DNA of 63,414 nucleotides, filler included, from 4 parts of 4 records of this genome joined end to end with filler, not necessarily neighbours in it; one strand, 5' to 3'. Positions 37,618 through 56,270 are shown, counted from the first letter of the whole stretch. A program made the numbers and translations. The notes: generated by a model not told the origin, from the sequence alone.

Positions 37618-37737
37618 AAATCAGAAGTAATCTCAAGCCTTAAAGATAACAGGCCTATCCATTTGCGTGCAAAAACCTAAGAAAGATTCTTTGGTAAACT
37701 ATTCAGGCGTTAACTTTGTATTTAAAGGTGTAGATAG

Positions 37738-37884
37738 TTGGAAAGTGGAAAGGGTGGAAGTTTGAAAGGTGTTAAAGTTTTAAGTTATAAGATATAAGGG
37801 AAAATTGATTGATCGTAAGAAGTTTGATCATTAATAACAATTTGCACCCTCTGCGAAACCTCCGCGCACTCTGCAGTTAAATAA
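37738..37884 (+). repeat. Short degenerate intergenic repeats (GTTGGAAA-like units and CTCTGCG-type units)
   Basis: GTTGGAAAGTGGAAAGGGTGGAAGTTTGAAAGG and CTCTGCGAAACCTCCGCGCACTCTGCAG between holA and the TPR gene. Confidence 0.5.
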
Positions 37885-37890
37885 GAAATC

Positions 37891-38616: not shown

Positions 38617-38825
38617 CTGACTAATAGGTATATCCGCTATTGTCCCAGTATGGAGTCAAAATCAACAATGGATATGTTAAACTTAAGAATTGAGCCCGCT
38701 TAAGCCTGTCCCGCCAGTGCGGGAGTCATCGGCCTTCCTCCTAGATAGGCAAAGAATCCAAGGTGATTGGCATCTTTGCAGATAATAATAATGACTAACT
38801 CGCGAAATGTCCTAATTGGAAAGCA

Positions 38826-39668
38826 CTAAGCAGACTTTATCACCCAAAGTGGCTTATTGATAAAATAGGCCATTTTTTTTGAAAGACTTTTTGAAAAAAT
38901 CTGATCGAAAAATGACTTCTTTTCACTCAAAGTCACTAGCATGTCACCTTTAGCAGTTTGCAGGTAATTTTCCAATCCCAAGGCAATATCATCGCGGAAG
39001 GATTTTAAGACAAAATTGACTTTATCGTATTTAATGAATGGCTCAATCTCTTCCACCATTGTCTCGTGCAGTGACTTATCCAATGCTTTGTGCGTACCGC
39101 TGACATGGACTATATCTATCTCAGAATCAAAAAAACGTGCAAATTCAACAACCTTTTGAATTGCAATTTTATCCTCTTCTAGGTAATCACTAGCATAGAC
39201 AAGTTTTCTGGGCGCTTTGAAAAACACCTTCCTAGGGACCACTAGTATATCCCATTGTGACTGCTCCACTATCCTACTTGCTCGAGAACCTATAATATTT
39301 TCTCTAAAATCATTAACACCTTCCGTGCCTACCACAATTAAGCTCGTATTAATTTCTGAAGCATAATTGAGGGTTTCCTTGACGATGTTACCTTCCCTCA
39401 CGACAGAAGTACAGCTACGCAACCCCTTGTTTATTCCTTCCTTATTAACTGCTTTTTGCAAATTCTGAAGTTTTTCTAAAACAAAATCCATCTGATGTTT
39501 CCCATCAGTATCTGACGGTGACAGTTTTTGATAATCCTCCCGATTGAGCACATGAAATAGAATCAGATCCGCCTTGTACTTTTCTCCCAATCTCGTTGCA
39601 TATTCGATAGCATTCAAAGAGCATTCTGAAAAATCTGTAGGGCACAATATCTTAAAAGTCTGATCCAT
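38826..39668 (-). CDS. Universal stress protein (tandem USP domains)
   Basis: KILCPTDFSECS, LIVVGTEG, IIGSRAS, ILVVP. Confidence 0.92.
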   Translation of the reverse strand: MDQTFKILCPTDFSECSLNAIEYATRLGEKYKADLILFHVLNREDYQKLSPSDTDGKHQMDFVLEKLQNLQKAVNKEGINKGLRSCTSVVREGNIVKETLNYASEINTSLIVVGTEGVNDFRENIIGSRASRIVEQSQWDILVVPRKVFFKAPRKLVYASDYLEEDKIAIQKVVEFARFFDSEIDIVHVSGTHKALDKSLHETMVEEIEPFIKYDKVNFVLKSFRDDIALGLENYLQTAKGDMLVTLSEKKSFFDQIFSKSLSKKMAYFINKPLWVIKSA

Positions 39669-39728
39669 TTTATTTGTTTTTTATACTCTCTGATAAATTA
39701 ATATGTATATCCGCTTTTCTACCAGTAG

Positions 39729-39828
39729 NNNNNNNNNNNNNNNNNNNNNNNNNNNNNNNNNNNNNNNNNNNNTTAATTAATTAANNNNNNNNNNNNNNNN
39801 NNNNNNNNNNNNNNNNNNNNNNNNNNNN
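39729..39828. other. Artificial contig spacer
   Basis: 44 N + TTAATTAATTAA + 44 N. Confidence 0.98.
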
Positions 39829-39890
39829 CAAGGCTCTGATTCTCTTAGACTCAAGGCTAAATCTCTTAGTCTAATTCTAAATTCAATGAA

Positions 39891-39910
39891 CCCATGACTC
39901 AAGTCATGGG
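39891..39910. repeat. REP-like palindrome
   Basis: CCCATGACT-CA-AGTCATGGG. Confidence 0.65.
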
Positions 39911-40258
39911 GATCCCACCCACCCAATGACATCCAGCTCACAACCTTGTCTAATTACTTTAGCAGCGGGTACCAACTCACCGTCCACCATTTTGGCGGAT
40001 TTTGATTTGGATTGAGTTTCTTGATGAGCGCTCAGCAGGTGTCACAAAATTCTGTGCTGACAGAGTTTGGAACAGCCTGCAAACAAACATAATTATTTGC
40101 TCTGTGTCTTGTATGCGCTATCGCGCCCAACGAACCGAAATTTTAGTTTAAGTGACTGTAATTCGCTGTAAGTGTTGGAAATTGGCTGCTGCACAAAATG
40201 GTATTTTCCGGTCATTGTGCTCCCGCGGAATGCCGGATGAACGCATCCAGCGGATGAA

Positions 40259-40963
40259 TTAACAGATTCCGCCGCTTGACTTTTTCTTTCTCTCTTCCTG
40301 TTCATCTTCCTCATCTGCCCGACGGTCGGCAGACGCGCAGGTGCTGCGGCACGTTTCAAAATCCTGTTTGCTGAATTGCAGTTGCGGCTCCCCCTGCATT
40401 GTGTTGCGCCGAGAATCCATCTCGCTGATCCACGCAGCAAAATCGTCTACAAATGGATCATTGGAGTTGGACTTATGCCCGCGATTGACATCTGAAATTG
40501 GCAAGAGCCGATCAGGCAGCGGTACAGGCTTATCGCCAAAATACCAGAAGTGATCCGATACCAATGCATTTACTCCGCCCAAATCTGTTTCGCGATTGCC
40601 TTCATTGTGCACGCTGGGCCGCATAGCGGGAGGCTCGCCGGCCGAATAATCAAAAATGCAGTCGCCTACACGGCGCGCATAGTCATCGTGAGTCGGGTCT
40701 GGGAATTTGGCGGGAGCATGGGTGCCGCACCACGCTTCATACGCGTGCATTGGAATTGGCTTCTGAATCTTCATTGCGTAAACCACGCGATCCGAAATGT
40801 CGCCAATCGGTGAGTTAACCGAGCCAAAACCTACGACCCAGTCGCCTTCCTCGGCAACCCGGCGAATGACAGGCTTACAGATAACCAGGCTACACCAGCC
40901 TCCGTAGGGATTGGGCGCGGAACCATAATCTGATGCAACAACATATGAGAAGAGCCTTGCCAT
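40259..40963 (-). CDS. Nmad2 (nucleotide modification associated domain 2) family protein
   Basis: N-terminal signature LFSYVVASDYGSAPNPYGGWCSLVICKPVIRR..GDWVVG, then VYAM, GDCIF, H, D, LVSDHFWYFG. Confidence 0.8.
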   Translation of the reverse strand: MARLFSYVVASDYGSAPNPYGGWCSLVICKPVIRRVAEEGDWVVGFGSVNSPIGDISDRVVYAMKIQKPIPMHAYEAWCGTHAPAKFPDPTHDDYARRVGDCIFDYSAGEPPAMRPSVHNEGNRETDLGGVNALVSDHFWYFGDKPVPLPDRLLPISDVNRGHKSNSNDPFVDDFAAWISEMDSRRNTMQGEPQLQFSKQDFETCRSTCASADRRADEEDEQEERKKKSSGGIC

Positions 40964-41285
40964 TTCTTGTCTCCAATTGCTAAACTAGCTTGGTGAGCAC
41001 CGGCAATCTTGTGATATTCCGATGCTTATCATTATTTTTGTTATACTTTAAATAACACTTTTATTCTTACAGCACCAAACTTCAGACACAAAATCAAAAG
41101 ACCCAGGCAGCAGTCGGAGTCAATAATTTCAATCCATTTCGGCTGTTGCAGACTTTTATACAAGGTGATTCTGGCATGCCAGTGAGATGAGCATTGCTAA
41201 TATTCTACGATAATGAGACTTGTACAAAACTGGGCCGCTTTGAGAATTGAACATTTCTCGAGACTGGCTACTTGAGCCACAACTA

Positions 41286-41354
41286 TTAACAAAAGGAAAC
41301 AGCAAGCCCAACTGGACCGGCTTTGCGGGACAGGAGGCGAAGCGCTCAAGCCTT
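41286..41354 (-). repeat. Dispersed repeat family, copy 3
   Basis: Reverse complement AAGGCTTGAGCGCTTCGCC...GGCTTGCTGTTTCCTTTTGTTAA, with a longer central spacer than the other copies. Confidence 0.8.
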
Positions 41355-41380
41355 AAACACTAAAATTGAAAATGTAATTG

Positions 41381-41833
41381 TTAATCCTCTGCCAGATTTA
41401 AATACTTCTGATGTATCTCGGTTTGTTCATCAAATCGAATTGGCTGATCGTTAATATGTCGGTAAAAAGACAACAGAATAATGGACGACATTTCGTCTGG
41501 GAAAACAACACCGTACCCCTTAAACCATTCTGCCAGATGCGAATCGGACCACAATTTCCAGTTATTGCGAATCCACATACCCAGGCCAAAGTGCTGCCTG
41601 CCAATATCCTCTTCAGTTGCAGTTTTGAAGTACTCAATAACTTCGTGGGACAGTACTTTTTCGAGAGTTAACATGCAATCGTCCAGGTCCTTTGGAATGT
41701 ATCCTTCCATCTCTGCCAGGACGGCAGCCCGCTCGCGATCGGGCCCGGTAGAATCGGCACAGGTCAAAGCAAATACAAGCAGAGAAAGTATCCCAAGAGC
41801 GGCATACAGGAAGGTAAATTGAGGTCTGTACAT
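41381..41833 (-). CDS. DUF6794-domain exported protein
   Basis: Signal/lipoprotein-like N-terminus; YIPKDLDDC, HFGLGMWIRNNWKLW, PDEMSSIIL. Confidence 0.75.
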   Translation of the reverse strand: MYRPQFTFLYAALGILSLLVFALTCADSTGPDRERAAVLAEMEGYIPKDLDDCMLTLEKVLSHEVIEYFKTATEEDIGRQHFGLGMWIRNNWKLWSDSHLAEWFKGYGVVFPDEMSSIILLSFYRHINDQPIRFDEQTEIHQKYLNLAED

Positions 41834-41975
41834 GCGTGATTCTCCGGTATGTGAAACAGGAAAAGACTGTGTTCCACACTTGTAGACAATCCAGCGCTGA
41901 TTTTTCTACACCTTTACACAAAAAAACATCAAATTGCATGTGGCGACAAAACTTAACATTTAAACGGAGTGTGGA

Positions 41976-43322
41976 TCAGGCCAAGCCCGGCGCTCCCAAC
42001 ACATCCCTACCCAGCCGACGGGAAAGTAAGACGGCACGCGCTACCGTAAATGCGATCATCGAAAGCCATAAACCGTGATTTCCAATCAAGGGAACGCTAA
42101 TTGCGGCACAGGGCAAAAAGACAGCAAATGTCGCGACAATCATGGTCTGACGCATGGAAGAACCTGCCGTAGCTCCAATAAATGCGCCATCCCAAAGGTA
42201 AGCCGGCACACTTACGAGTGGAACAAAAACCATCCAAATAATGAACGTGTGCGCATAGTTAACAAGGTCGCTTTTGTCGCTGAACAGATACAAAAACTCG
42301 CGGCCAAAAACACCGATTCCAATCGCTAAAAATGCTGCGATGATCATCGACCAGATGAAGCCCGTGCGCAAATCCAGCTTCAGACGCGCAGCATCGCGTT
42401 TGCCGATAGCGTGCCCCACCAGCGATTCAATCGCAAATGCAAAACCGTCAATGCCATAAGCCACCAGCGTCCAGAACTGCATCAGCAGCTGATTGGCTGC
42501 CAGTGTTAACAGTCCCAGGCGCGGCGAAACCATGAAAAATGTGACGTACACAACTTCCAGGCAGAGCGTGCGCACAAAAATATCACCATGCAAACTAAAG
42601 AAGGCGCGTAGGCCACTACGTTCAATCACCGCCTGCCAGTTAAACGCTTTGGCAAACGGTTTATAGCGCATCCACAAAGCTGCCACGGCAACGAGTAAAC
42701 CGCTGTATTGCGCAACGACGCTGCCCCAGGCTACCCCTTCGTGTTCCAGTCCAAGCCCGTACACAAAAAACAAATTGCCCAGAATGTTAACAAGATTGAT
42801 GCCCACGGCCAGAATCATTACAATCCGAGCATTCTGCAAGCCCAGGAACCAACCGTTTAGTGCCAGCAATGCCAGAGCTGCCGGCGCAGCCAGAAATCGA
42901 ATCGTTAAGTATTCACGTGCAAAGAGGTCTGTCTGCGCCTGAACATCTGCAATTAACAGACTGACGTCTGCAATGATTGGCGCCAGTGCTATAATAATGA
43001 GCCCAAAAGGCAGCGCTACGGTTAATGCGCGATACAAAACTGTTGCGGTCGCAGCATCGTCACCACGTCCATATGCCTGCGCACCGGTTCCGGTGGCTCC
43101 CATACGCAGGAATCCAAACATCCAGTAAATGGTTGAAACAATTAAACCGCCAATGGCAATTGCTTCCAGATGTGCGATTGACGGCATACGCCCCATCATC
43201 GCCGTGTCCACTGCCGAAAGCATCGGAACGGTAATGTTGGAGATAATATTCGGAATTGCCAGCCGCAGAACGCGCCGGCGGGAAGCCGCACCCGTCAAAT
43301 CATCGCGCGACTTTTTTGCCAT
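41976..43322 (-). CDS. dinF: MATE-family efflux transporter (DinF-like)
   Basis: LAIPNIISNITVPMLSAVDTA, FGFLRMG, DGFAFA, DGAFIG; many TM helices. Confidence 0.88.
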   Translation of the reverse strand: MAKKSRDDLTGAASRRRVLRLAIPNIISNITVPMLSAVDTAMMGRMPSIAHLEAIAIGGLIVSTIYWMFGFLRMGATGTGAQAYGRGDDAATATVLYRALTVALPFGLIIIALAPIIADVSLLIADVQAQTDLFAREYLTIRFLAAPAALALLALNGWFLGLQNARIVMILAVGINLVNILGNLFFVYGLGLEHEGVAWGSVVAQYSGLLVAVAALWMRYKPFAKAFNWQAVIERSGLRAFFSLHGDIFVRTLCLEVVYVTFFMVSPRLGLLTLAANQLLMQFWTLVAYGIDGFAFAIESLVGHAIGKRDAARLKLDLRTGFIWSMIIAAFLAIGIGVFGREFLYLFSDKSDLVNYAHTFIIWMVFVPLVSVPAYLWDGAFIGATAGSSMRQTMIVATFAVFLPCAAISVPLIGNHGLWLSMIAFTVARAVLLSRRLGRDVLGAPGLA

Positions 43323-44166
43323 CCTGGTCGTACTTGTAGAATCCTTCGCCGGTTTTGCGGCCCCACAACTTGGCGTCTACATACTGCTGCTGCATCAGCG
43401 ACGGCTCAAAACGTGGCTCGTTAAAGTATTGTTGCCAAACGGATTTGGTTACTTCCAGGTTCGTGTCTACGCCAATCAGGTCCATCAACTCAAAAGGCCC
43501 CATGCGGAAGCCCGCGCCTTTCATGATCTTATCGACCTGCTCCACGCTCGCAGTCCGCTCAGTACAAACTCGCTGTGCTTCGTTGTAAAAATTGCGTGCC
43601 ACACGGTTAACAATAAAGCCTGGCACGTCGGCGGCTACGGCCGGCGATTTGCGTAGTGACTTAGCCAATTCCACAGTTTTGTCCACAACTGCCTGACTGG
43701 TTTTAACGCCGCGAATGACTTCCACCAGCTTCATGATATGCGCCGGGTTAAAGAAGTGCATACCAACAAAACGCTCAGGATGTTTAAACTCGGCCGCCAG
43801 TGACGTCACCGATATCGAACTGGTGTTGGTAGCGATGATAACATCTTTGCCCACCGTGTCTTCCAGAGTCGCAAAGAGCTTGTTTTTAATGTCACGGCGT
43901 TCAACAATCGCTTCAATCACAAAGTCGCATTTCTTAAACTCGGCCAAATCTTTGGTAAAACAGTATTCTTTGAGCGCCGCATCCGCCTTTTCCTGCGTCA
44001 TCAGCTTGCGCGCCACGGCTTTTTCAAGCTGCTTTTTAACAAATGCGTCACCGCGATCAATTGACTCCTGGTGGACATCAAAGAGGAGCGCCTGATGCCC
44101 GTTCTGGATGGCGGCCACGGCTATTCCGGCCCCCATTGTCCCTGCGCCACAAATTCCGATGAGCAT
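43300..44166 (-). CDS. 3-hydroxyacyl-CoA dehydrogenase (PaaH/Hbd-like)
   Basis: GAGTMGAGIA, EAIVE, TNTSSIS, GMHFFNP, PGFIVNR, MGPFELMDLIG, GRKTGEGFY. Confidence 0.93.
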   Translation of the reverse strand: MLIGICGAGTMGAGIAVAAIQNGHQALLFDVHQESIDRGDAFVKKQLEKAVARKLMTQEKADAALKEYCFTKDLAEFKKCDFVIEAIVERRDIKNKLFATLEDTVGKDVIIATNTSSISVTSLAAEFKHPERFVGMHFFNPAHIMKLVEVIRGVKTSQAVVDKTVELAKSLRKSPAVAADVPGFIVNRVARNFYNEAQRVCTERTASVEQVDKIMKGAGFRMGPFELMDLIGVDTNLEVTKSVWQQYFNEPRFEPSLMQQQYVDAKLWGRKTGEGFYKYDQDGKKVAR

Positions 44167-44310
44167 ACTATTACCACTTTATCTACAATGAATGAAATAC
44201 TTTTTCAGGAGCTTAACAGCTCAATGCTGCCGGCTATTCTCAGCCGGCGCGGCTTAACATTTGGATTTTCACAGTCAGAGTTTGACTGCCAAATCTTAAG
44301 CGCTTTGCAA

Positions 44311-45108
44311 TTACTTGCCCTCAAACTTGGGGCGACGTTTTTCAATAAAGGCCTGTACGCCTTCGCGGTAGTCATGGCTTTGGCCGGCGCGCTGCTGATA
44401 GTCAACTTCCATATCCAGGATCGAGTCGAGGGACTCGTTGGCACCGCGCTGCAGCATCTCTTTAACAAAACCGTAGCTCTGTGTTGGACCTTGGGCGTAG
44501 GTTTTGGCCAGGTTATGCAGGGCAGTCGGCAGCACGTCTGGCGCTACTACCTGATTAACCATTCCAAGGCGCAGCGCTTCTTCAGCTGTCATCGGCGCGT
44601 TAAGTGTTGCAAACTCAAATGCTTTGGCATAACCGAGCATGCGCGCATAGAAGTAACTTGCTCCTGAATCCGGCACAAGTGCAATTCCGATAAATGCTTC
44701 AACAAGTTTAGCGCGTTCGCTCATGATACGCACATCACAGGCCAAAGCCAGTGAGAGGCCCGCACCAGCCGCAGCACCGTTAATCCCAGCGATAATCGGT
44801 TTGGGGATCGAGCGCAGCTTGCGAATAATTGGATTGTAGCGGCGGCGCAGTGAGTCCGCAAGCGAACGTTTGCCGTCACCGCTGTCGTCAGCCGAAGGCG
44901 CTTCTTTTAGGTCCTGCCCCGAGCAAAATGCGCGGCCGGCACCTGTTAACACAATGCAGCGCACGGCGGCATCTTCTTCGGCGGCCTTCAATGCAGCTTG
45001 CAGGTCGGTTGTTAACTGTTCATTACAGGCGTTAAACGAATCCGGCCTGTTAAGTGTAATCGTCAGTACGCCGTCTTCCAGCGTGTAGAGCAAAGTTTCG
45101 AATGTCAT
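44311..45108 (-). CDS. paaG: Enoyl-CoA hydratase/isomerase, PaaG-like
   Basis: GAGRAFCSGQDL, YNP, NGAAAGAG, LVPDSG, DYREGVQAF. Confidence 0.78.
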   Translation of the reverse strand: MTFETLLYTLEDGVLTITLNRPDSFNACNEQLTTDLQAALKAAEEDAAVRCIVLTGAGRAFCSGQDLKEAPSADDSGDGKRSLADSLRRRYNPIIRKLRSIPKPIIAGINGAAAGAGLSLALACDVRIMSERAKLVEAFIGIALVPDSGASYFYARMLGYAKAFEFATLNAPMTAEEALRLGMVNQVVAPDVLPTALHNLAKTYAQGPTQSYGFVKEMLQRGANESLDSILDMEVDYQQRAGQSHDYREGVQAFIEKRRPKFEGK

Positions 45109-45163
45109 AGTATTTCTATCGTATTGTTAAGTGTAATTTGCCATTTGAAGGCGAGTGCCGGAT

Positions 45164-45943
45164 TTATTTGCCGGTCCATTTGGGGCGACGTTTTTCCATA
45201 AAGGCTTGCATGCCTTCGGTCGCATCTTCGCTGGCAAACAGCAGATAGAAGTTCTTGCGCTCAAATTCCAGGCCGTTTTCAATAGTCGTATCAAATGCTT
45301 TTAACACGGCTTCTTTACCCAGGCGCGCTGACAGCGGCGGCATGGCGGCAACGGATTTGGCAAGCGAAATTGTTTCTTCCAGATACACACTATCCGGGCA
45401 AACGCGGTTAACAAGTCCGGCAGTATGGGCTTCACGTGCGGAGATCATGCGGCCTGTTAACACCATTTCCATGGCCAGAGCTTTACCAACGGCACGTGTT
45501 AAACGTTGTGTTCCACCGGCACCGGGCATTACGCCAATTTTAATTTCGGGCTGGCCAAATCGCGCACCTTCGGCAGCCACGATCATATCGCAGATCATCA
45601 CGAGTTCACATCCGCCACCAAGCGCAAAACCACTGACTCCGGCTACGATGGGTTTCTTGATTTTTCGGATCCGATCCCAGCGCGAAAACTGGTCACGTCC
45701 AAGCATGTCGATCGCCGTGGCATCGGACATCTCGGAAATGTCGGCCCCGGCCGCAAACGCCTTTTTATCGCCGTGGATCACGATACAGCGCACGGCATCA
45801 TCAGCATCATAGGCTTCAAATGCATCGACCAGCTCACGCATGGTTTGCAGGCTCAGGGCATTGAGTTTATCGGGACGATTTATCTGGATCGCGCCAACGC
45901 CGTCGGCAGCCTGATAGGTTCGGATACATTCGAATTCACGCAT
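45164..45943 (-). CDS. paaF: Enoyl-CoA hydratase, PaaF-like
   Basis: AFAAGADI, GFALGGGCEL, FGQPEI, PGAGGTQRL, EGMQAF. ATG 45943 after GGAG. Confidence 0.78.
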   Translation of the reverse strand: MREFECIRTYQAADGVGAIQINRPDKLNALSLQTMRELVDAFEAYDADDAVRCIVIHGDKKAFAAGADISEMSDATAIDMLGRDQFSRWDRIRKIKKPIVAGVSGFALGGGCELVMICDMIVAAEGARFGQPEIKIGVMPGAGGTQRLTRAVGKALAMEMVLTGRMISAREAHTAGLVNRVCPDSVYLEETISLAKSVAAMPPLSARLGKEAVLKAFDTTIENGLEFERKNFYLLFASEDATEGMQAFMEKRRPKWTGK

Positions 45944-46122
45944 GAGCGCCGTCTCCAATCACTGATAATGGCGGAAGTTCGCCGTGGAACAGAAGCAGTT
46001 GCAAATTTACGAAAAGTGGCGTTAATAGCGGGGTTGGCCGTGCCATGGGCTCACAGTTTCTTGGCTTCCGGCCTAAGTTTTGTCTGCAATTTTTGCGGTT
46101 GGCGGCATTGCGTTTTTCTTGA

Positions 46123-46269
46123 AAGGCTTGAGCGCTTCGCCCCCTCCGGTGGCTTACTGGTTCTTTTTGTTAGTCATTGGGTGCGAAGTCGCGAGATTTT
46201 GAGTCTGAAATTCTGAGCTGTCATCGAGTCTTCAAGCCACAATCCCCACCAGCTGTGAGCCACAGGCTC
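46123..46269 (+). repeat. Long composite repeat (dispersed repeat copy 4 plus left arm of the REP-like palindrome), interrupted by IS110
   Basis: 46133-46269 aligns without gaps to 57917-58053 (constant offset 11784; about 108/137 identical by hand count). Confidence 0.9.
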
Positions 46270-46278
46270 GTAAGTTGT

Positions 46279-46513
46279 GATTGTAGTAACACAATCTTGG
46301 ACTCCTTCATCAATCCATTCAGTTTAGCCGCCTTGGCAGGGGGAAGGAAAAGCACATCTCAGGCTAGGTCTTCGAGACCGTCTGTGAGGACGAGCTTTCC
46401 TTCCCCTGGTGTATCTACAAGCTCGAAGAGTACCAGGGGTTTCGGTAGGCGCCGAACCCGATTACACGAGCAAGAGCATTGATCCACCTGCCAAGAGGCT
46501 TTTACGAGTCCAA
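46279..46513 (+). ncRNA. Predicted IS110 bridge RNA (target-binding and donor-binding loops)
   Basis: Target loop closed by GGGGAAGGAAAAGC/GCTTTCCTTCCCC with guides TCTCAGGCT (46357-46365) and CTGTGAG (46382-46388). Donor loop with guides AGAGTACCA (46427-46435) and ACGAG (46466-46470). Ends are approximate. Confidence 0.85.
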
Positions 46514-46535
46514 CAAATATACTTCGGAGGCTAGC

Positions 46536-47636
46536 GTGTCCAAACAACAGCGTTTTAACCATTGTGTGGGTATCGATGTCGGTAAAGAGTTCTTGGTCTG
46601 CCGCATCGGTCATCTTCAGGAAGACGGCAGTATCACGTATACCCGCGGGCAGGGGAAGTTTGCCAATGGCACGAAGGGTTTCACTGCGTTGCTGAGTTGG
46701 GCTACGGCGTGCATCCCCTCGGACGCGTCGCTCAGTTTTGTGCTGGAAGCCTCGGGCGTGTACCATGAGGAGGTGTCGTACTTTCTGCATCGTGCCGAGC
46801 AGTACGTCGTCGTTCTGGTGCCGCGCCGTGCGCGCCAGTTTGCTGAATCAATCGGTATTGACACGAAGAATGATAGTGTCGATGCCGCCGTACTTGCGCG
46901 TCTGGGCCTGCAGTTACACCCCAGGGCCTGGCAATGTCCGGATCCGCAGTTCCTGGCCCTCAAACGCATCATGCGGTACTACCACAGTCTGGTTGAGGAT
47001 CTTACCGCTGCCCGCAACCGCAGAGAGGCTCACAAGAGCAGTCATGCACCGGTGACTTCTCTCCTCAAAAGCCAGGACAGAATCATCGCCGCTTTGGTAC
47101 GTGAGCGTATTGCAACGATCAAATCCGCGCGCCAGCTCATCAAGTCCTTCCGTCCTGCGCTGCGCGCCAAACTCTCCTACCTGCGCTCGATTCCTGGTAT
47201 CGGTGAGATCATCGCCCTGACACTCGTGGCAGAAACCGACGGCTTTGCTCTGATGGAAAGTAAGCGCCAGATAGCCTCCTACGCCGGGCTCGACGTCCGT
47301 GAACACCAAAGTGGCAAGACAAGCGGACGATCGCGCATCTCCAAGCGGGGGAACAGCCGCATGCGTAAGGTGCTCTATATGGGAGCGCTCACAGCTGCCA
47401 ATCATAACAAGCCGCTCAAAACATGGTATGAAGTTCTAAAGGCAAAGAAAGCTACACCACAGATTGCCGTCGTCGGAGTGATGCGCAAGCTCCTTGTCCT
47501 GGCCTTTGTGATATGGAAGACCGAACGTCCCTTCGACCCAGAACACGAAGCAAACCGACGTGCCAACGCTGCGAACGATGAAGCAAGAACGAAGGACGCG
47601 ACTTCCGAAAAAGTCGCGATTTCTCTTGGTTCTTAA
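46536..47636 (+). CDS. IS110-family recombinase/transposase (366 aa)
   Basis: DEDD RuvC-like residues (VGIDVGK, VLEASG, KNDSVDA); Tnp domain SIPGIG, YAGL, HQSG with the conserved Ser, ISKRGN, MRKLL. GTG at 46536 after GGAGG (46526-46530). Confidence 0.96.
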   Translation: MSKQQRFNHCVGIDVGKEFLVCRIGHLQEDGSITYTRGQGKFANGTKGFTALLSWATACIPSDASLSFVLEASGVYHEEVSYFLHRAEQYVVVLVPRRARQFAESIGIDTKNDSVDAAVLARLGLQLHPRAWQCPDPQFLALKRIMRYYHSLVEDLTAARNRREAHKSSHAPVTSLLKSQDRIIAALVRERIATIKSARQLIKSFRPALRAKLSYLRSIPGIGEIIALTLVAETDGFALMESKRQIASYAGLDVREHQSGKTSGRSRISKRGNSRMRKVLYMGALTAANHNKPLKTWYEVLKAKKATPQIAVVGVMRKLLVLAFVIWKTERPFDPEHEANRRANAANDEARTKDATSEKVAISLGS

Positions 47637-47644
47637 CACAGTAC

Positions 47645-47660
47645 CTCACAGCTGGTGGGG
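47645..47660 (+). repeat. Right arm of the interrupted REP-like palindrome
   Basis: CTCACAGCTGGTGGGG is the exact reverse complement of CCCCACCAGCTGTGAG at 46244-46259. Confidence 0.92.
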
Positions 47661-47850
47661 AAAACTTTTGAGCTCAAAATTTGACCGCTCAACGCCTTCA
47701 GCCGCCCGCTGTCAGTCTTTCCGAGTGACGTAAGATTATATTCCTTGTGTATGTCAGCAGCGTGACATGCAGCCTTCAAGTAAACTGCCGCTACTGCTTC
47801 CGGCTATGAACTTAGGTTGTTGTTTCTTGGTTCATAACTTTAGCTTGATA

Positions 47851-47878
47851 GCTTTGGGTTGGTTGCTTTGGGTTGGTG
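47851..47878 (+). repeat. 14-bp tandem duplication
   Basis: GCTTTGGGTTGGTT GCTTTGGGTTGGTG. Confidence 0.7.
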
Positions 47879-48515
47879 CTGCAAGTTGAAAATCTTGAGC
47901 ATCGAATTGGGCGCGCTCAGCTGCTGTAACTTCCTGTACCCTGCACTGAATTGTCAGGCAGCACCGCTCAGATGAAGCGCTTATATCTCCTCAGTTTTGC
48001 AATCTCTCGCGAATTTTTTGCTACGAACTCACTTCAAGCCATAATAACCTGAACCGCTTAACAGCATATTCCGCCACGTTAGCATCAAGTCGCCGCCGTT
48101 GAACACGAAGCCGCAGTGAATTCAAGAACCTCGCTTGTATTCTTGTAGCGGAGAATGGCGGGAAACGTGCCGACAGCCTCTCGTGAGTGTCCACATAGCG
48201 GCCGCAGATACGCCGATCTGCCATAGACCATGGGCTGGAAAGGCTCTGGGAGGAGCGCCGCAAATGCGCCGGAATGGTGGAGGGCCTGACCGTGGCCCGA
48301 TGAATGAGACGAATGGTGGCACAATCTAAACAGGTTGGGGTAAACAGGTGGGGCAAGAATTAGATATGCAGTTCAATTACCGGCAGCCTCGCCGCCAGGG
48401 GTCGCTCCTGACGGACGAGACCTTGTGATCGCTTCTAAAAGCTCCCACAGCCGATGATTTGTCAATTTCGTTCCATGGAATATTTACCATAATTTGGCCC
48501 ATGCATTCCGTGAAA

Positions 48516-50339
48516 CTACGGGGCCAGGCTATCCAGCACCTCGCCACAGTGCAACATCGATGCACCAAAGTATGGATTAAGAACTTTGGACTCCGTACTC
48601 AACCAATTGCCGCCGGCATTCCCGAGAGCCATTGGACAGTATTGGACATAGAAAGTATTTTCATCTGGAGGAAATGCACGTGCCAGTGCAATCAGATTGT
48701 CTGAAACGGGTTTGAACTCTGTGCGTAATGTCGCCATTTCATCGGCCGATTCTAGCGCGTGCATTGACTTCCGCAGTGCTTCTCCATGCTGCAGCCACAC
48801 CGCCTTTGCCTCACCTACAAACACATGCACATCAATGCCCTCCAGCTTTTTCGAAAGTCTTCCTGCTACTGCACGAGCCTGCTTAAAATCATCATTAACA
48901 AGAGCATCTTTAAGCTCCAAATATGTACTAAATACGGGAGCGAGTTTTGCGCGTGCCTCAACACCAATAGAAACTGGTTTTACATTCTGGATAGTCGTGT
49001 GAGACGATGCATCACCAGGGCCGACCATTGTGTTCGATGCACGTATCGCCACCACACCGGGATTCATCATACTGGCATTGCCCGCCAGCTGTGCCGCAGC
49101 ATCTACACTGAACAAACCATTGGCAACCAGTTCATCGCCTGCTTCTACCCCATCAAGAACGACATAAGAATTTCCAAGAGCCGGCCCCAAGAGGACTTCG
49201 CGTAACTCAAAAACTCCAATCTCATCTCCAGCAGTCTTGGCGTAAACGATAGATCGCTCCCCCGTCCAAAGAATCGCAGACTTTGGAACCTGCAACTGAC
49301 CATCCGCCGCCTCGCTGCCTGATTGGCGGCTTGCTGTAATCCGGCCACGCACATACATTGAAGGTTTGAACCGATTGCCAATGTTTTTGAGTGTCGTTCG
49401 CACTTTCACTGTTCCTGTTTGCGAAGCACCCAGAGGCTCAATAAATTCGATGCGGCTGCGGAATATTTTGCCGGGGTAGGCGTTAACACTAAAACTTATA
49501 CTGTCTCCGCGTGATACTGATGCAATATCTGATTCGTAAACGTCAAACTCTACCCACAGGCTGTTAAAATTGACAGCTTCAAACAGGCGTTGACCGCGGA
49601 CGACATAATCACCTTCGCGTATGTTCAGACGGAGTATCTGACCAGCATTATCACTATACAGATCAACAATACCGCTGGCATCCTTGTCAGCAATAAGCTG
49701 ATCAATTTGCACAGTACTAAATTTCCAATTGGCAAGCTTGGAACGTACGGCTGCGTATAACTGCGGCTGTTGTTCTCTCTGCTGATAGGCACGTAACAGT
49801 TCTTGCTGCACCGTCATGACTTGTGGCGAGTAGATTTGGGCAAACACGACCCCCTTCTCAAATTGCTGCCCAAAATAGTTAAGTTTCAACGACTCGATTC
49901 GTCCTGCTACATGTGCAGTTTGCACAAAACGACTGCTCTCACTGGTTACTACTTCCCCATTAACATCAATAATGTGTTGTGCGCCAGTCTGTTTAACTTG
50001 TACTGTTGATACATTTGCCAATTGCATTGCACGTGGAGAAAGCTTCACCCGACGCATATTCGCATTGTCATCAGCAGTCTCCACCGGAATCAAGTCCATG
50101 CCGCATATTGGACAGTTCCCTGCCTCCGGCTGCCGAATCTGCGGATGCATGGAACATGTCCAAGTTGTGCCAACCTGCGCAGCGCTACTGCCGTCCGCTC
50201 TATGGTGTTCTTCTTGCTGTGGCTTTTCGCCACCAATGCCAAACAGCACCCAACTGAGCAATAACCCGGCAATGAATGTACCTAGTGGAAGCAGGAGCCT
50301 GCGCACTGTTCCCTGAGATAATCTCTGTTCTGTTATCAT
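48516..50339 (-). CDS. CusB-like RND periplasmic adaptor with heavy-metal-binding domain and C-terminal DUF3347-like domain
   Basis: WTCSMHPQI..GNCPICGMDL, membrane-fusion core, YLELKDALV, YCPMA, NPYFGASMLHCG. Confidence 0.92.
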   Translation of the reverse strand: MITEQRLSQGTVRRLLLPLGTFIAGLLLSWVLFGIGGEKPQQEEHHRADGSSAAQVGTTWTCSMHPQIRQPEAGNCPICGMDLIPVETADDNANMRRVKLSPRAMQLANVSTVQVKQTGAQHIIDVNGEVVTSESSRFVQTAHVAGRIESLKLNYFGQQFEKGVVFAQIYSPQVMTVQQELLRAYQQREQQPQLYAAVRSKLANWKFSTVQIDQLIADKDASGIVDLYSDNAGQILRLNIREGDYVVRGQRLFEAVNFNSLWVEFDVYESDIASVSRGDSISFSVNAYPGKIFRSRIEFIEPLGASQTGTVKVRTTLKNIGNRFKPSMYVRGRITASRQSGSEAADGQLQVPKSAILWTGERSIVYAKTAGDEIGVFELREVLLGPALGNSYVVLDGVEAGDELVANGLFSVDAAAQLAGNASMMNPGVVAIRASNTMVGPGDASSHTTIQNVKPVSIGVEARAKLAPVFSTYLELKDALVNDDFKQARAVAGRLSKKLEGIDVHVFVGEAKAVWLQHGEALRKSMHALESADEMATLRTEFKPVSDNLIALARAFPPDENTFYVQYCPMALGNAGGNWLSTESKVLNPYFGASMLHCGEVLDSLAP

Positions 50340-50540
50340 AGTATTTCCTTACCACTTAAATTCTGTCCGTGTGTTTTTTGAAGCTGTCGGGGAGACGAGC
50401 GTAGTCATGTTTTCCAGCAATGTTAATCAGTCGGTAGAAAAAACTGCGTTGCAACTGAATTGCAGTCACCCACTTTGTACAGAGCTTGACACATGAATAG
50501 ATTGATCCGAATGTTTAATTGCAGTATACTTCTGAACATT

Positions 50541-51857
50541 TCACTCAGACAACACTCCCACACCCACAGTCTCTGTTAAATAGTATATTTGTGCCAGAGC
50601 CGTAAAATACTGTCGCACCATTGCGGCTTGTTGTACCTGCAACTCCAGTGTGGCCGATTGAGTCGTAAGAAGATCGTCAAAATCGTTTCCAGAATTGCGA
50701 TACTCAGCAAGCAATAGGTCCAACAGTCGCTGATTACGAACTATTTGATGTGAATACAGCTTGAACTTGCGGCTTGCTTCCTGGTAGACATAACGTTCTT
50801 GTTCAAACATGGCAACCATTTTGTTTAACTCGTTGTCTACTGTCAGGGTATACATGTGACTCTGCAACTCAGCTTCATTAACTCCCGCTTCAAATTTGGA
50901 GCGGAATAGCGGCACGCTAAACTGCAGAGTCGGGATGATTGCATCGCGTCCATTGTTAAGCGGTGCGATGTCATCGCGCGCGCCGGTCAGCACATAGTCA
51001 ATTCCCAGACTAAGAGTCGGCATACCTTCTTTTGAGCGTTGGAGAGCTAAGGCATCAGACGCAGCCCGTCGCATTGCCAGTGATTGAATTCGAGGATGGT
51101 TGCGCAACAGACTGTCCAATTGCCTGGGGCCCTGTACAGTAATATCCGCCTCACCAATTGTATGATTCTGAGAAACTTCAATTCGTGACGTATCAGACCT
51201 GTTAAGCAAAACACGCATTTTCTGTTCGACGGCCACACGACGTTCCTGAATGAGCTCCAGTTGAACCTTAAGATCTTCAACCTCCATCTCAACGCGCAGT
51301 ACGTCAGCAAGGCTAGCCGTACCGGCGGCAATGGTATTTGTAAGCAATTGTGTATGTGTAGTTAAAATCTCCAGCTGCGCCATATACAACCGGTGATTTC
51401 CATCAAGTTCGTGGAGGTGATAATACACTTGACGTACGTCACGTCGGAGCGAACTTCTGAGAGCGCGATATTCCTCCTGCAAAGCCTGCGCGGTGCTCTC
51501 ACCAGTTGTCCGTCTTGCATCTAATAGGCCAAACCACGGGATGGGCTGCCGCAGATAGAGTCGTGCTTGCTGCGGCCCCAGTCTGCTTTCTACGGGCAAA
51601 ATCGCGATACCGATATTAACCGATGGATCAGGGTGGCCACTCAAATGTACGGATCGTGCCCGACTGGCCATATACCGCGCCTCTGCTGCTTTTAACCCAG
51701 GGTTGTGCAACTCTGATTCATGTAAATAGTCTGCAAGTGTTTGCGATTTGCCATCAACAACTAACAAAAATGTCAAGGGCAGAAGCACCAGAACCAAGAT
51801 AGTCAACGAACGCTCCAGAGATCGCGATATGACAAGTTTGCCTCTAAACATGATCAA
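50541..51857 (-). CDS. TolC-family outer-membrane factor
   Basis: NPGLKA, LPVESRLGPQ, QPIPWFG, coiled coils; between the cusA- and cusB-like genes. Start may be slightly downstream. Confidence 0.88.
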   Translation of the reverse strand: MIMFRGKLVISRSLERSLTILVLVLLPLTFLLVVDGKSQTLADYLHESELHNPGLKAAEARYMASRARSVHLSGHPDPSVNIGIAILPVESRLGPQQARLYLRQPIPWFGLLDARRTTGESTAQALQEEYRALRSSLRRDVRQVYYHLHELDGNHRLYMAQLEILTTHTQLLTNTIAAGTASLADVLRVEMEVEDLKVQLELIQERRVAVEQKMRVLLNRSDTSRIEVSQNHTIGEADITVQGPRQLDSLLRNHPRIQSLAMRRAASDALALQRSKEGMPTLSLGIDYVLTGARDDIAPLNNGRDAIIPTLQFSVPLFRSKFEAGVNEAELQSHMYTLTVDNELNKMVAMFEQERYVYQEASRKFKLYSHQIVRNQRLLDLLLAEYRNSGNDFDDLLTTQSATLELQVQQAAMVRQYFTALAQIYYLTETVGVGVLSE

Positions 51858-54800
51858 GCTCCTCCCTGTTTAAGCTTGCGCTCTTCACGCATACAATACA
51901 GAACGGGTGTGAAAAAATAGGCAATCACGGCAACCGACATGCCACCAACAGCGGGAATCGCCATCGGAATCATTATATCGGCACCGCGCCCATTGGAAGT
52001 CAGAATTGGCAGAAGAGCGATAATTGTTGTTGCGCTGGTCATGACAGCCGGCCGGATGCGCCGCTCTCCACCACGCACCACAGCTGCATGCAGCTCGGGA
52101 ACTGTTAACGGTCTTGAACGCCGCATACTTTGGTCCAGGTTAGTTGCAATCAACACTCCATCATCCGTGGCAATACCGAACAATGCAATGAATCCAACCC
52201 AGACAGCAACACTGAGGTTTACCTGAGAAACATTAAACAACGTGCGCAGTGAAATATCAGACACTGTTACATTTAGAAACCATTCCTGGCCGAACAACCA
52301 TATCAATACAAACCCGCCGCTAAATGCCAGTGCTACGCTTCCAAAAATTATCAGCGATGTTGTTCCTGAGCGGAACTGTAAATATAAGATCAAAAAAATG
52401 AGCGCCAGAACCAGTGGAATAATGATCCCCAAACGTTTCTCAGCTCGCACCTGGTTCTCATAATTGCCCGAAAATCGATAACTCACACCTTCAGGAACCT
52501 GTAGTTCACCCTCAGCGATCTTATGTTGAATAAAAGCCTGCGCGGCTTCGATGACATCGACTTCGGCAAGATTGTCCTGCCGGTCAAACAGGACATATGA
52601 AAGCAAGAAGGTATTTTCACTTTTTATTTGCTGTGGGCCACGCTCAAATTTGATTGACGCCAAGTCTTTTAATGGATATTGCCTGCCATTGGCAGCCGCA
52701 ACAAGTACATTCTCTATATCAGCAGGTGAGTCACGTAGCTCGCGCGGATAGCGAACGCGAACGGCGTAACGCTCGCGGCCTTCCACCGTATAGGTCACAG
52801 GTAAACCGCCTATCGCCAATTCAATTACCGTCTGCACATCTTCAATATTAATGCCACGCCGTGCAATGGCAGATCGATCAATCTCTATGTTAATATATGG
52901 TTTGCCGACAGTACGCTCGGCAAAAACCGTCTGTGGATTAATAGCTGAAACCTGTTTAAGTATGTCTTCGAGTTTAAGACCAAACGCCTGAATCGAGCTC
53001 AAGTTGGGGCCAAAGACTTTGATCCCCATTGGTGCGCGCATCCCCGTTTGCAGCATCACCAGTCGCGTTTCAATCGGTTGTAATTTCGGCGCTGAAGTCA
53101 CGCCGGGAAGTGCAGTGATTGCTACAATCTCACTCCAGATATCATCAGGTGAGTGAATGTGACTGCGCCAGTTGCGAAAGTACAGTCCACTGTCATCAGG
53201 AATCAACTGCGTCTTGTCAATGCCTGCCAACAGAAGCGAGTCGTTGGTCATGCTGCTGAGTCCGCCGCTATCGCGTAACACAAAGCGACCATCGGCATCA
53301 ACACGAAAACGCATGCGGCGGCCTCTGGCATCAACCGCATATTCAGGTGCGTAGTTAATCACATTTTCGTACATGGACGTTGGAGCCGGATCCAGGGCCG
53401 ATTCCACGCGACCAAGCTTCCCGACCACCATGGTAACTTCCGGAATGGTGCTGACCAGAATGTCAAGTTGTTGTAGCGTGAGAGTATTTTGTTGTACGCC
53501 GGCATGTGCCATGGAAGTCGGCATTAACAGGAAGCTGCCTTCATCCAAGGCCGGCATAAATTCCTTGCCAATGCCTGGAAAGGAATGTAATGCTTGTGAC
53601 CAGATCGTGCTAGTTCGAAGGTTCCATCCAATCATATCAGAGCTATGAGCTATCCAGCCAAATACGCTTGAGAAGCCGAGCCAAATGGTAATACCTACGA
53701 CTATCAGTCCACTCGGAAGAAGGAGAAAAATGCTTTTGTGCCTAAGGCACCAGCCTAAAATGCTTCCGTACCAATGTTGAATTCCCAGCATAATGCCGAG
53801 CACCGTAATCAAAATGCTTGCAACAAATATTGTGTTAACAAAGAGTGTGACGCTTGGCCCAAGCGGCATCCACATCTCCCCCAACAATATTGCAACCGTT
53901 AGCGCCGCCGCAATATTTATTGAGTTCTTTATAATCCAATGTGAACGCCAGCGACTGTGCATTAAGAGACGCGCAACCCCAAAGACAACCAGACTCATGC
54001 CGGCCCAGAGTGTACCCCACATTGCAATGAATAGCCCACCGAACAGTAAACAACATCCGAAAACAATCGACGTGCGGGCGCGGTTAAATCGCATGCGGAA
54101 TAAGGTGTGTGCCAGGGCGGGCAATACAAAGAGTGCCACCAACACCGCAGCAACGAGAGCAAAGGTTTTTGTAAACGCCAGTGGATGAAATAGCCTACCT
54201 TCGGCTGCCTCAAGCGCAAAGACTGGAATAAAACTAACGATCGTCGTTGCCACAGCGGTTAAAATTGCCGAGCGTACTTCAAGGGTGGCATCAAATATTA
54301 CGTCGATCAGCTTTTTACCCGAGCCGGCTTCCGCTAAATGTTTAAGCACGTTTTCGGAGACAATAATTCCCAAATCTACCATAGTTCCGATTGCAATTGC
54401 GATGCCCGACAGCGCCACAATATTCGCATCGACGCCGAATTGCTGCATGGCGATAAAGACCATCAAAATCGCCACCGGCAAAATTCCTGCGATCAGTATT
54501 GATGCACGCAGATTTAACACCAGAACAATTACAACCAAAATTGTTATTAACAATTCAAGAGTCAGAGCATCTTCCAGCGTCGCGATAGTTTCGTCAATTA
54601 GTCCGCTGCGATCGTAAAACGGGACAACTGTTAACTTGCTCGTGCGGCCGTCTGCCAAAATTTTTGTGGGCATGCCTGCCGAGGACTCTGCGATTGCTGC
54701 TTTTACGCCTTCTATCACAGCTTTGGGGTTCGCGCCATACCGGGCCACAACCACTCCGCCAACCACCTCGGCTCCCTCCTTGTCCAATACTCCGCGACGC

Positions 54801-55660
54801 TGTGCCGGGCCCAGGTTAACACGTGCCAGATCGCGCACCAGTATCGGTACCCCGTTGCGTTCCACAACTACTGTCTGTTCAATATCGTGGACCGAGGTAA
54901 TGTAACCCAGCCCGCGGACAAAATATTCGACCTGATTTATCTCGATGGTCTTGGCGCCGATGTCCCGATTGGACTTGCGCACGGCGGCAGCAACCTGACT
55001 GATCGAAATCTTATATGTCTGTAGCGCAGCGGGGTCCACATCCACCTGATATTCCTTCACGAACCCACCAATTGATGCGACTTCCGCTACTCCTTCCACC
55101 GCGGCCAAGGAAAACTTCACGGTAAAATCTTGCAATGAACGCAGTTCATGTAATCCCCATCCACCAGTCGGGTTTCCGAGTGAATCCCGGCCTTCCAGCG
55201 TATACCAAAACACCTGACCAAGGGCCGTCGCATCTGGGCCAAGGGCAGGCTGCACACCCTCGGGTAGCAGACCTGAAGGCAAAGAGTTGAGTTTCTCGAG
55301 AATTCGCGAGCGCGACCAGTAGAAATCTACGTCGTCTTCAAATATGAGGTAGATGCTGGAAAAGCCAAACACGGAAGAACTGCGAATTGTTTTAACACCG
55401 GGAATCCCCAACAAAACAGAGTTCAGCGGAAAAGTGATTTGATCCTCTACGTCACGCGGTGAACTCCCCCGCCAGGGAGTGTAAATTATTTGCTGATTTT
55501 CACCAATGTCCGGAATGGCGTCCACGGCCACCGGAGACCCCAACTCAAGCCCGTGATTCCAATCAAACGGCGCGCTGATTATTCCCCATCCCACTACAAT
55601 CAGTAGCAGAATTGAAGTAACTAACTTGTTTTCAAGAAAAAAGCGAATTGCTGTGTCCAT
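51854..55660 (-). CDS. cusA: CusA/CzcA-family heavy-metal efflux RND permease
   Basis: VDAIPDIGENQQI, GPDATALGQVFWY, GIAIAIGTMVD, FMPALDEGS, GIATDDG, RIRPAVMT. Confidence 0.93.
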   Translation of the reverse strand: MDTAIRFFLENKLVTSILLLIVVGWGIISAPFDWNHGLELGSPVAVDAIPDIGENQQIIYTPWRGSSPRDVEDQITFPLNSVLLGIPGVKTIRSSSVFGFSSIYLIFEDDVDFYWSRSRILEKLNSLPSGLLPEGVQPALGPDATALGQVFWYTLEGRDSLGNPTGGWGLHELRSLQDFTVKFSLAAVEGVAEVASIGGFVKEYQVDVDPAALQTYKISISQVAAAVRKSNRDIGAKTIEINQVEYFVRGLGYITSVHDIEQTVVVERNGVPILVRDLARVNLGPAQRRGVLDKEGAEVVGGVVVARYGANPKAVIEGVKAAIAESSAGMPTKILADGRTSKLTVVPFYDRSGLIDETIATLEDALTLELLITILVVIVLVLNLRASILIAGILPVAILMVFIAMQQFGVDANIVALSGIAIAIGTMVDLGIIVSENVLKHLAEAGSGKKLIDVIFDATLEVRSAILTAVATTIVSFIPVFALEAAEGRLFHPLAFTKTFALVAAVLVALFVLPALAHTLFRMRFNRARTSIVFGCCLLFGGLFIAMWGTLWAGMSLVVFGVARLLMHSRWRSHWIIKNSINIAAALTVAILLGEMWMPLGPSVTLFVNTIFVASILITVLGIMLGIQHWYGSILGWCLRHKSIFLLLPSGLIVVGITIWLGFSSVFGWIAHSSDMIGWNLRTSTIWSQALHSFPGIGKEFMPALDEGSFLLMPTSMAHAGVQQNTLTLQQLDILVSTIPEVTMVVGKLGRVESALDPAPTSMYENVINYAPEYAVDARGRRMRFRVDADGRFVLRDSGGLSSMTNDSLLLAGIDKTQLIPDDSGLYFRNWRSHIHSPDDIWSEIVAITALPGVTSAPKLQPIETRLVMLQTGMRAPMGIKVFGPNLSSIQAFGLKLEDILKQVSAINPQTVFAERTVGKPYINIEIDRSAIARRGINIEDVQTVIELAIGGLPVTYTVEGRERYAVRVRYPRELRDSPADIENVLVAAANGRQYPLKDLASIKFERGPQQIKSENTFLLSYVLFDRQDNLAEVDVIEAAQAFIQHKIAEGELQVPEGVSYRFSGNYENQVRAEKRLGIIIPLVLALIFLILYLQFRSGTTSLIIFGSVALAFSGGFVLIWLFGQEWFLNVTVSDISLRTLFNVSQVNLSVAVWVGFIALFGIATDDGVLIATNLDQSMRRSRPLTVPELHAAVVRGGERRIRPAVMTSATTIIALLPILTSNGRGADIMIPMAIPAVGGMSVAVIAYFFTPVLYCMREERKLKQGGA

Positions 55661-55810
55661 TTGGTAATACCATTGCATGCGATTATTGGCCCGGTCAGGA
55701 ACTCCCGGAAAAACCAGAGTCTTTGGTCAGAATCAAGTCGAGTGAAAAGTCTGCTACAGACAGGCAGGTCTATGTAGGCGTGCCAAGGTGATGGCTACGC
55801 ACTATCTATC

Positions 55811-56236: not shown

Positions 56237-56270
56237 GTCATGTAATTTACACGCCTGCTGGAATCTGCCA

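Follow-up and report, generated by a model that had tools for sequence, protein, structure and literature searches.

Insertion of a divergent IS110-family element into a long intergenic palindrome, probably guided by the element's own bridge RNA

The IS110-family element and its landing site

Judged from its sequence, the insert described here is an intact element of the IS110 family and IS110 group that represents a divergent lineage. It occupies an intergenic site 310 bp upstream of the nearest gene start, and no gene is broken by it (Table 1). The window, by which we mean the whole stretch of DNA analysed (63,414 bases), consists of four contigs joined by linkers of the form N44-TTAATTAATTAA-N44. 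Contigs 1 and 3 have a short repeat in common, and their gene products (CarboxypepD_reg TonB-dependent receptors, proteins with Por_Secre_tail domains and a DUF3347 CusB protein) are of kinds typical for Bacteroidota. From this content they seem to derive from the same organism, and the element is apparently borne by a member of the Bacteroidota. Contigs 2 and 4 may stem from other organisms, given their strongly different GC content. The whole window harboured no tRNA and gave no Rfam match at the gathering score.

Table 1. Positions of the contigs, the insertion sequence with its predicted RNA features, and the two copies of the palindrome and upstream repeat.
Feature	Position	Strand	Remarks
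Contig 1	1-24873		GC 0.52
Contig 2	24974-39728		GC 0.40
Contig 3	39829-58055		GC 0.49; carries the IS110 element and both palindrome copies
Contig 4	58156-63414		GC 0.62
Upstream repeat, first copy	46133-46243	+	Conserved block 46133-46183 plus 60-nt spacer; aligns gap-free to 57917-58027
Palindrome left arm, 18 nt, CCCCACCAGCTGTGAGCC	46244-46261	+	Exact reverse complement of 46265-46268 joined to 47647-47660
Palindrome loop ACA	46262-46264	+	Would be read by left-target-guide positions 3-5; sole asymmetric part of the palindrome
Right arm, first 4 nt (GGCT)	46265-46268	+	Ends in the left core dinucleotide copy (CT, 46267-46268)
IS110-family insertion sequence, 1,378 bp counting one core copy	46269-47646	+	Boundaries from palindrome restoration and guide matches to both ends
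Predicted bridge RNA target-binding loop	46340-46406	+	Basal stem, internal loop and distal hairpin (46367-46379); from predicted fold and covariation
Putative left target guide TCTCAGGCT	46357-46365	+	Resembles the top-strand sequence of the left target CCACAGGCT (46260-46268)
Putative right target guide CTGTGAG, with G46389 as candidate handshake base	46382-46389	+	CTGTGAG (46382-46388) is complementary at 7/7 to CTCACAG, 47645-47651
Putative donor-binding loop, layout drawn by hand	46406-46490	+	Distal hairpin 46437-46459
Putative left donor guide AGAGTACC	46427-46434	+	7/8 match to ACAGTACC (47638-47645) at the IS right end
Putative right donor guide TT/ACGAG	46462-46463 and 46466-46470	+	ACGAG is complementary at 5/5 to CTCGT, 46267-46271, at the left end
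Candidate handshake base C46471	46471	+	Just 3' of the right donor guide
Recombinase gene, 366 aa	46536-47636	+	GTG start at 46536, GGAGG 6 nt upstream, stop 47634-47636; assigned by Pfam domains
Right arm, nt 5-18	47647-47660	+	Pairs with the left arm once the IS is removed
Upstream repeat, second copy	57917-58027	+	Aligns gap-free to 46133-46243
Second palindrome copy, no IS at core	58028-58055	+	T replaces G at left-arm position 14 and A replaces C at right-arm position 5; loop ACA; right arm truncated after 7 nt where the contig ends

The gene of the element encodes a recombinase with the domains DEDD_Tnp_IS110 (PF01548, 1.6e-21) and Transposase_20 (PF02371, 2.7e-27). In an alignment of 12 sequences, the query and 11 database relatives, D14, E71, D113 and S259 were invariant and D116 nearly so, and these positions correspond by alignment to the DEDD and serine catalytic residues. 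A protein search returned 3,785 significant matches, the best full-length relatives being 36-40% identical and one fragment of 207 aa 55% identical. The best tblastn match over 72,556 plasmids was an IS110 element of Hymenobacter at 39.2%, and a second copy of this IS was found in none of the collections searched.

Once the 1,378 bp are removed, two 18-bp arms and a 3-nt loop form a perfect palindrome. When 46244-46268 is joined to 47647-47660, a sequence of 39 nt results in which the arms are exact reverse complements around ACA, with a DNA folding energy of -24 kcal/mol. The same relationship was recovered by an inverted-repeat search, in which 46243-46259 and 47645-47661 were 100% complementary; this target palindrome is the only inverted repeat bracketing the IS, which has no long terminal inverted repeats of its own. 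The dinucleotide CT is present at both IS junctions (46267-46268 and 47645-47646). A 13-mer from the left arm occurs three times in the window (46244 on the plus strand, 47660 on the minus strand and 58028 on the plus strand), where 0.12 occurrences are expected by chance. The inverted-repeat search found 56 hairpin-type pairs; nine of the 25 that were listed are linker artefacts, and the best real perfect hairpin among those 25 has arms of 13 nt and is located on a contig that differs in GC content; by comparison the restored palindrome is conspicuous. The split palindrome was not flagged in a terminator scan, which reported one site at the left junction (46254-46272) that pairs target with IS bases, and a T-run following the palindrome is absent on either strand. 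The view that the IS landed in a palindrome that was already there is supported.

A putative bridge RNA and its predicted reading of the target

The 267 nt between the left end of the IS and the start codon fold better than shuffled sequences (z -3.1). A predicted stem, at about 46340-46353 with 46394-46406, closes the internal loop that would bind the target, and 13 of the 17 predicted pairs of the target-loop stem have changed on both sides in one or more of five aligned sequences (the element and four Hymenobacteraceae relatives). Within this 5' non-coding region the guides match both the target and the element's own ends, which by sequence is the arrangement of a two-loop bridge RNA, and by analogy the RNA would be made and used as in IS621. 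An Rfam search around the IS at an E-value of 1 or less gave no family for the bridge RNA, only a chance snoRNA-like match.

For the donor-binding loop, we infer a basal stem of 46406-46415 with 46481-46490 (8 of 10 pairs) from a layout drawn by hand and by analogy to IS621; the minimum-energy fold closes the donor region differently. The relatives have kept the motif ACAGTA of the putative donor loop, and ACAGTA(T/C)CT is found at their right ends. On the other side of the loop, pairing can extend through U46462 and U46463 to two further donor bases once A46464 and C46465 are flipped out, and a second 7-nt complement to the right side of the donor (TTACGAG, 46502-46508) is located outside the donor loop. 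Candidate handshake pairs could form between G46389 and donor position 7 (C47644), and between C46471 and target position 7 (G46266).

The target so defined begins with the last two bases of the left arm (positions 1-2), continues through the loop (3-5) and takes in the first nine bases of the right arm (6-14). The core thereby falls on right-arm bases 3-4, inside the stem and 3-4 nt from the loop. The left target guide is identical to CCACAGGCT at 7/9 positions, six of them contiguous up to and including the core; position 1 could form a U-G wobble and position 3 is a U-T mismatch. It was because of this single mismatch that the original prediction expected variants of the palindrome with a TCA loop elsewhere in the genome. 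Its arithmetic is correct, since the real site scores 7/9 and a TCA-loop variant would score 8/9. By analogy, no such variant needs to exist, as IS621 itself mostly sits in sites one base off its guide (PMC11208160) and ISPpu10 is described as strict for the right guide and tolerant of mismatches in the distal left guide (bioRxiv 10.64898/2026.03.19.712850).

Since the two arms mirror each other, the strands of the palindrome can be distinguished only by the 3-nt loop. The opposite strand offers the same right target, and there the guide-specified 11-mer has two mismatches (46253-46263). The observed orientation of the insertion is thus, in sequence, the better guide match, and the choice of target by the guides is suggested from one insertion.

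These observations may be assembled into a single explanation. The IS would have been inserted by its serine/DEDD recombinase into the 39-nt perfect palindrome, recombining at the CT core, with the site chosen by a bridge RNA transcribed from the element's own 267-nt 5' non-coding region. In the first internal loop, the left guide would read the last two left-arm bases, the loop and GGCT, and the right guide would pair with CTCACAG in the right arm, while the second internal loop would pair with the joined ends of the element. The palindrome itself closes, on the right-hand side, a dispersed intergenic repeat that measures at least about 147 nt and is present in at least two copies in the organism. 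In the second copy, the hairpin-preserving T/A variant mismatches the right guide beside the core, in keeping with the unoccupied state of that copy. We hold this account as a whole, RNA-guided IS110 insertion into a palindrome that ends a dispersed repeat, with considerable confidence.

The dispersed repeat and its second palindrome

The repetition extends beyond the palindrome. A gap-free alignment of the two sites covers 136-139 nt at 79% identity, with about 111 nt of further upstream sequence common to both. Identity between the copies is 46/51 in the conserved block, 38/60 in the spacer and 26/28 in the palindrome. Beyond the repeat the flanks are unrelated, with an enoyl-CoA hydratase operon at one copy and an AraC/HMA regulator at the other (the genes adjoining the palindromes encode an enoyl-CoA hydratase, a CusB-like protein and the AraC/HMA regulator), and the arrangement is therefore that of a dispersed repeat rather than a segmental duplication. 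The 51-nt block alone recurs three more times, at 41354-41280 and 439-379 on the minus strand and at 1188-1228 on the plus strand, and the palindrome is absent from all three of these copies. By this alignment the repeat unit is longer than a REP.

The length of the unit bears on a different reading, in which the palindrome is a true REP spread by a RAYT to dozens or hundreds of copies and used by the IS as a multicopy safe harbour. Two intergenic copies within 12 kb, the one compensatory pair in the stem and a contig break within the second copy, of the sort frequent at repeats in assemblies, all accord with such a REP, and IS110 elements are reported to use REPs commonly (PMC1525189, PMC11208160); that IS621 targets REP elements, as the original prediction stated, is confirmed by the latter report. 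However, both copies are equidistant from the same upstream block and so look like two copies of one longer unit, and they are single, in the same orientation and 11.8 kb apart, with no BIME-like alternating array. About 43 kb of sequence from the same organism contained these two copies, both on one 18-kb contig; the palindrome is absent from the 24.9-kb contig 1, which has another repeat in common with contig 3, and from all other contig ends. Nor are other long hairpins found in the window among the 25 listed pairs. No RAYT/Y1-type Pfam match, and hence no RAYT gene of the kind that the original prediction had proposed to look for, was obtained in 29 of the 30 ORFs of at least 90 aa on contigs 1 and 3, a small sample of 43 kb from which the ORF at 46177-46479, overlapping the bridge RNA, was left out.

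Public collections were scanned for the left arm, loop and GGCT with 20 specified bases and exact matching, a query by which diverged copies are missed. In 185,579 species genomes there were three matches (Succinivibrionaceae, Thermoactinomyces and Actinoplanes), none of them with the right arm; metagenome contigs gave four, none a palindrome and two identical to each other; and viral contigs gave none. The idea of a multicopy host palindrome serving as a safe harbour is accordingly not borne out by the two copies in the window and the lack of any true copy in these three collections. The original prediction had itself taken confinement to the two sites as counting against it, and such confinement is what was found within the window and the three collections, a scope outside which the source genome lies, so that the result is not decisive. 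From the description of the target as a perfect REP-like palindrome, the perfection, the 39-nt length and the intergenic position stand, while REP-like copy number, arrays and a RAYT gene were not seen in the approximately 43 kb. On balance we consider a true REP unlikely.

The second palindrome reads left arm, ACA and GGCTAAC at 58028-58055, with the linker starting at 58056; only 7 of the 18 right-arm bases are visible, since contig 3 ends there. Compared with the restored first copy it is identical at 26 of 28 positions, and the only differences, G>T and C>A, lie opposite one another in the stem. The probability that two random substitutions would give a compensated pair is about 0.006, for what is a single pair. 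At the divergence of the adjacent spacer (22/60), two or fewer differences in 28 nt would be expected with P = 0.0004; the palindrome is thus better conserved than the spacer rate predicts, and is either constrained or recently homogenised. The claim that an empty copy shows compensatory changes therefore holds in so far as the two changes are real and complementary, and is narrowed by there being one pair, in 7 of 18 arm bases, with the emptiness of the copy resting on its last three bases (AAC, as against CGT at the IS junction of the occupied copy).

The base altered by the C>A change is target position 10, immediately past the core, and a G-A mismatch to the right guide would result. A mismatch at this place, together with the strictness of the right guide in ISPpu10, makes the second copy probably a poor target and not an equivalent free site, and a poor guide match is a simpler reason for its being empty. 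It could further be proposed that the T/A variant is a selected escape allele, which keeps the hairpin and breaks pairing with the right guide, leaving the copy immune to the IS. The mismatch itself, the partner change that keeps the stem and the finding that the right guide of ISPpu10 needs pairing at nearly every position (bioRxiv 10.64898/2026.03.19.712850) are compatible with this proposal. However, it concerns one pair in one copy, and nothing indicates the order of events. Template switching in quasi-palindromes can, in addition, yield paired changes without selection. We thus regard selected escape as improbable.

The same pair of changes may be given a broader and no more probable meaning, that of a small arms race fought on the hairpin between the host repeat and the IS. 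The stem would then have to be kept, for a host function or because cruciform extrusion exposes the core, and escape would be open only through paired changes such as T/A. If this doubtful reading were true, target structure and guide pairing would be read jointly, in a geometry unlike that of IS621 or ISPpu10.

It is very unlikely that the last seven bases (58049-58055) are a fold-back assembly artefact, in which the compensatory base would exist by construction: they do lie at the very contig end, where fold-back chimeras occur, but the turning point and the loop ACA are the same as in the independent first copy, which an arbitrary fold-back would not reproduce. Least probable of all, and close to negligible, is that the complementary stretches of 17-18 nt are terminal inverted repeats of a mobile unit spanning 46244-47660 with no pre-existing palindrome, for although perfect inverted repeats do bracket the transposase gene, at the second site the left arm and an identical loop run straight into the beginning of the right arm and no IS sequence follows the core, the donor guides match ends at 46269 and 47646 and not at 46244 and 47660, and IS110 elements are described as being without long terminal inverted repeats.

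Relation to known IS110 systems

Guided insertion into a palindrome that was already present, our preferred explanation, has close counterparts. The RNA-guided mechanism of IS110 elements was published in 2024 (PMC11208160, PMC11208158). For IS621 of E. coli, the left guide is described as pairing with the bottom strand and the right guide with the top strand, with the core included in both (PMC11208160), and a split right donor guide with two flipped-out bases is described together with the handshake positions (PMC11208158, PMC11208160). In the features reported for it, IS621 agrees with the present element in having a DEDD/RuvC-like domain and a Tnp domain with the serine, a CT core at both ends and no long terminal inverted repeats; in a 5' non-coding RNA with a target and a donor loop, in which guide strands and loop sides agree; in the split right donor guide with two unpaired bases and fitting handshake bases; and in a natural target that is one base off the guide, with an intergenic palindrome as landing site. 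The present recombinase, in contrast, shares no more than about 40% identity with any full-length protein that was found. The right target guide of the present element would pair over 7 nt as compared with the 4 nt given for wild-type IS621, and its core is embedded in the stem at 3-4 nt from the loop, which itself belongs to the left target. The IS621 target is, in our reading of the REP query strings quoted in PMC11208160, at the 3' end of the REP.

A catalogue from 2006 (PMC1525189) lists IS621, ISPa11, ISPpu9, ISPpu10 and ISRm19 as elements that target REPs. ISPpu10 and ISPpu9 of Pseudomonas putida are likewise IS110 elements whose reported insertions are all in one palindromic intergenic repeat (PMC12288879, PMC1525189), with a target that includes a stem-loop and stem pairs that covary across targets. 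In a 2026 preprint on ISPpu10 the stem-loop is described as contributing to target choice, with covarying stems (bioRxiv 10.64898/2026.03.19.712850). These elements are distinguished by a stem-loop of about 5 bp positioned 5' of the core, the left target being its 3' arm, and by a high copy number, with 7/7 IS copies in REPs, whereas the locus described here combines 18-bp arms, a core within the stem, one IS copy and two palindromes. With REPs and BIMEs in general it has in common a short intergenic palindrome seen more than once. REPs are described as usually numbering more than 100 copies per genome, often in alternating arrays and with a RAYT gene (PMC2817692), none of which was seen here, and the present palindrome differs in being perfect and attached to about 111 nt of further repeated sequence.

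The relatives inspected on plasmids (about 35-39% identity; Hymenobacter, Rufibacter and Chondrinema) are not in obvious palindromes, a point that counts against the explanation preferred here. In the Hymenobacter and Rufibacter elements the donor guides and right ends (ACAGTA..CT) behave as expected, and the targets reconstructed for the copies of Hymenobacter BRD128 and Rufibacter are no obvious palindromes. The three Chondrinema copies were set aside as evidence on targets, being frameshifted and located among other IS elements, with flanks that lack a clean target. One Hymenobacter IS copy seems to be truncated at its 3' end.

Insertion of IS110 elements into palindromic repeats has been known since 2003-2006, and the present locus is an ordinary case of it, with a mechanism explained by a known system; no new question is opened by the finding. 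What is particular to it is the divergent recombinase, the right target guide of 7 nt, the perfect 18-bp stem with the core inside, and the unoccupied variant that keeps the hairpin and mismatches the guide. It adds to the family a divergent IS110 element with a fully readable putative bridge RNA and a long right target guide, and an unusual target in which the crossover point would be within an 18-bp stem. As such, it could be a further natural case for the issue, raised for ISPpu10, of whether bridge recombinases are aided by DNA hairpins in finding their sites.

The bridge-RNA region and plasmid relatives of the IS110 element

Within the region predicted to give rise to the guiding bridge RNA of the IS110-family element, 46297-46304 can pair with 46506-46513 in a perfect 8-bp long-range stem, which could be the closing helix around the entire bridge-RNA region. 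The 3' strand of this stem is overlapped by TTACGAG (46502-46508), a 7-nt complement to the core and left end of the element that lies outside the donor loop.

Relatives of the element are carried by three Chondrinema litorale plasmids (L012, L013 and L014), which have frameshifted IS110 copies, near-identical to one another, at about 914-2370 (n=3). The L014 copy has its left flank in common with L013 and its right flank in common with L012, as if recombination had taken place between the copies.

DNA and genes around the occupied palindrome

An AT-rich second palindrome lies 5 nt past the end of the 39-nt palindrome that holds the element, and has a perfect 14-nt core, TTTTGAGCTCAAAA, at 47666-47679. 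The DNA from the 39-nt palindrome to the end of the cusB-like gene (47661-48515, ~855 nt) contained no Pfam-recognisable ORF, Rfam match or tRNA, and is unusually long for non-coding DNA of contig 3. A heavy-metal efflux cluster is also found on this contig; the second repeat copy, whose palindrome has no element at its core, lies 144 nt upstream of its AraC/HMA regulator gene. Two enoyl-CoA hydratase paralogues stand in tandem, adjoined by a 3-hydroxyacyl-CoA dehydrogenase gene, and their 3' ends are 80% identical across 55 nt (repeat D3).

Features of contigs 1 and 3, in positions of the window
Feature	Position	Strand	Contig
Conserved motif copy	439-379	-	1
Conserved motif copy	1188-1228	+	1
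Conserved motif copy	41354-41280	-	3
Conserved motif copy	46129-46183	+	3
Conserved motif copy	57917-57967	+	3
Tandem enoyl-CoA hydratase paralogues	43300-45958	-	3
AT-rich palindrome	47663-47682		3
Heavy-metal efflux cluster	48516-57773	-	3
CusB-like protein with HMBD and DUF3347	within cluster	-	3
Outer-membrane factor	within cluster	-	3
CusA/CzcA-like pump, 1,274 aa	within cluster	-	3
MauE/HMA protein	within cluster	-	3
AraC regulator with HMA domain	within cluster	-	3

Make-up of the window and a conserved intergenic motif

The contigs are separated by linkers of the six-frame-stop type (24874-24973, 39729-39828 and 58056-58155). Since GC content differs among contigs 1 to 4 (0.52, 0.40, 0.49 and 0.62, respectively), the source 'genome' may be a mixed bin. 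Among the four, only contigs 1 and 3 have repeats in common. A conserved motif of ~50-60 nt, whose approximate sequence is GAGCGCTTCGCC ... GGCTTACTGTTTCTTTTTGTTAG and whose middle carries a variable insert, occurs five times in the ~43 kb of these two contigs, in both orientations and in every case between genes. It may be terminator-like, a MITE end or a binding site, and it seems a better candidate for the organism's high-copy repeat than the 39-nt palindrome.
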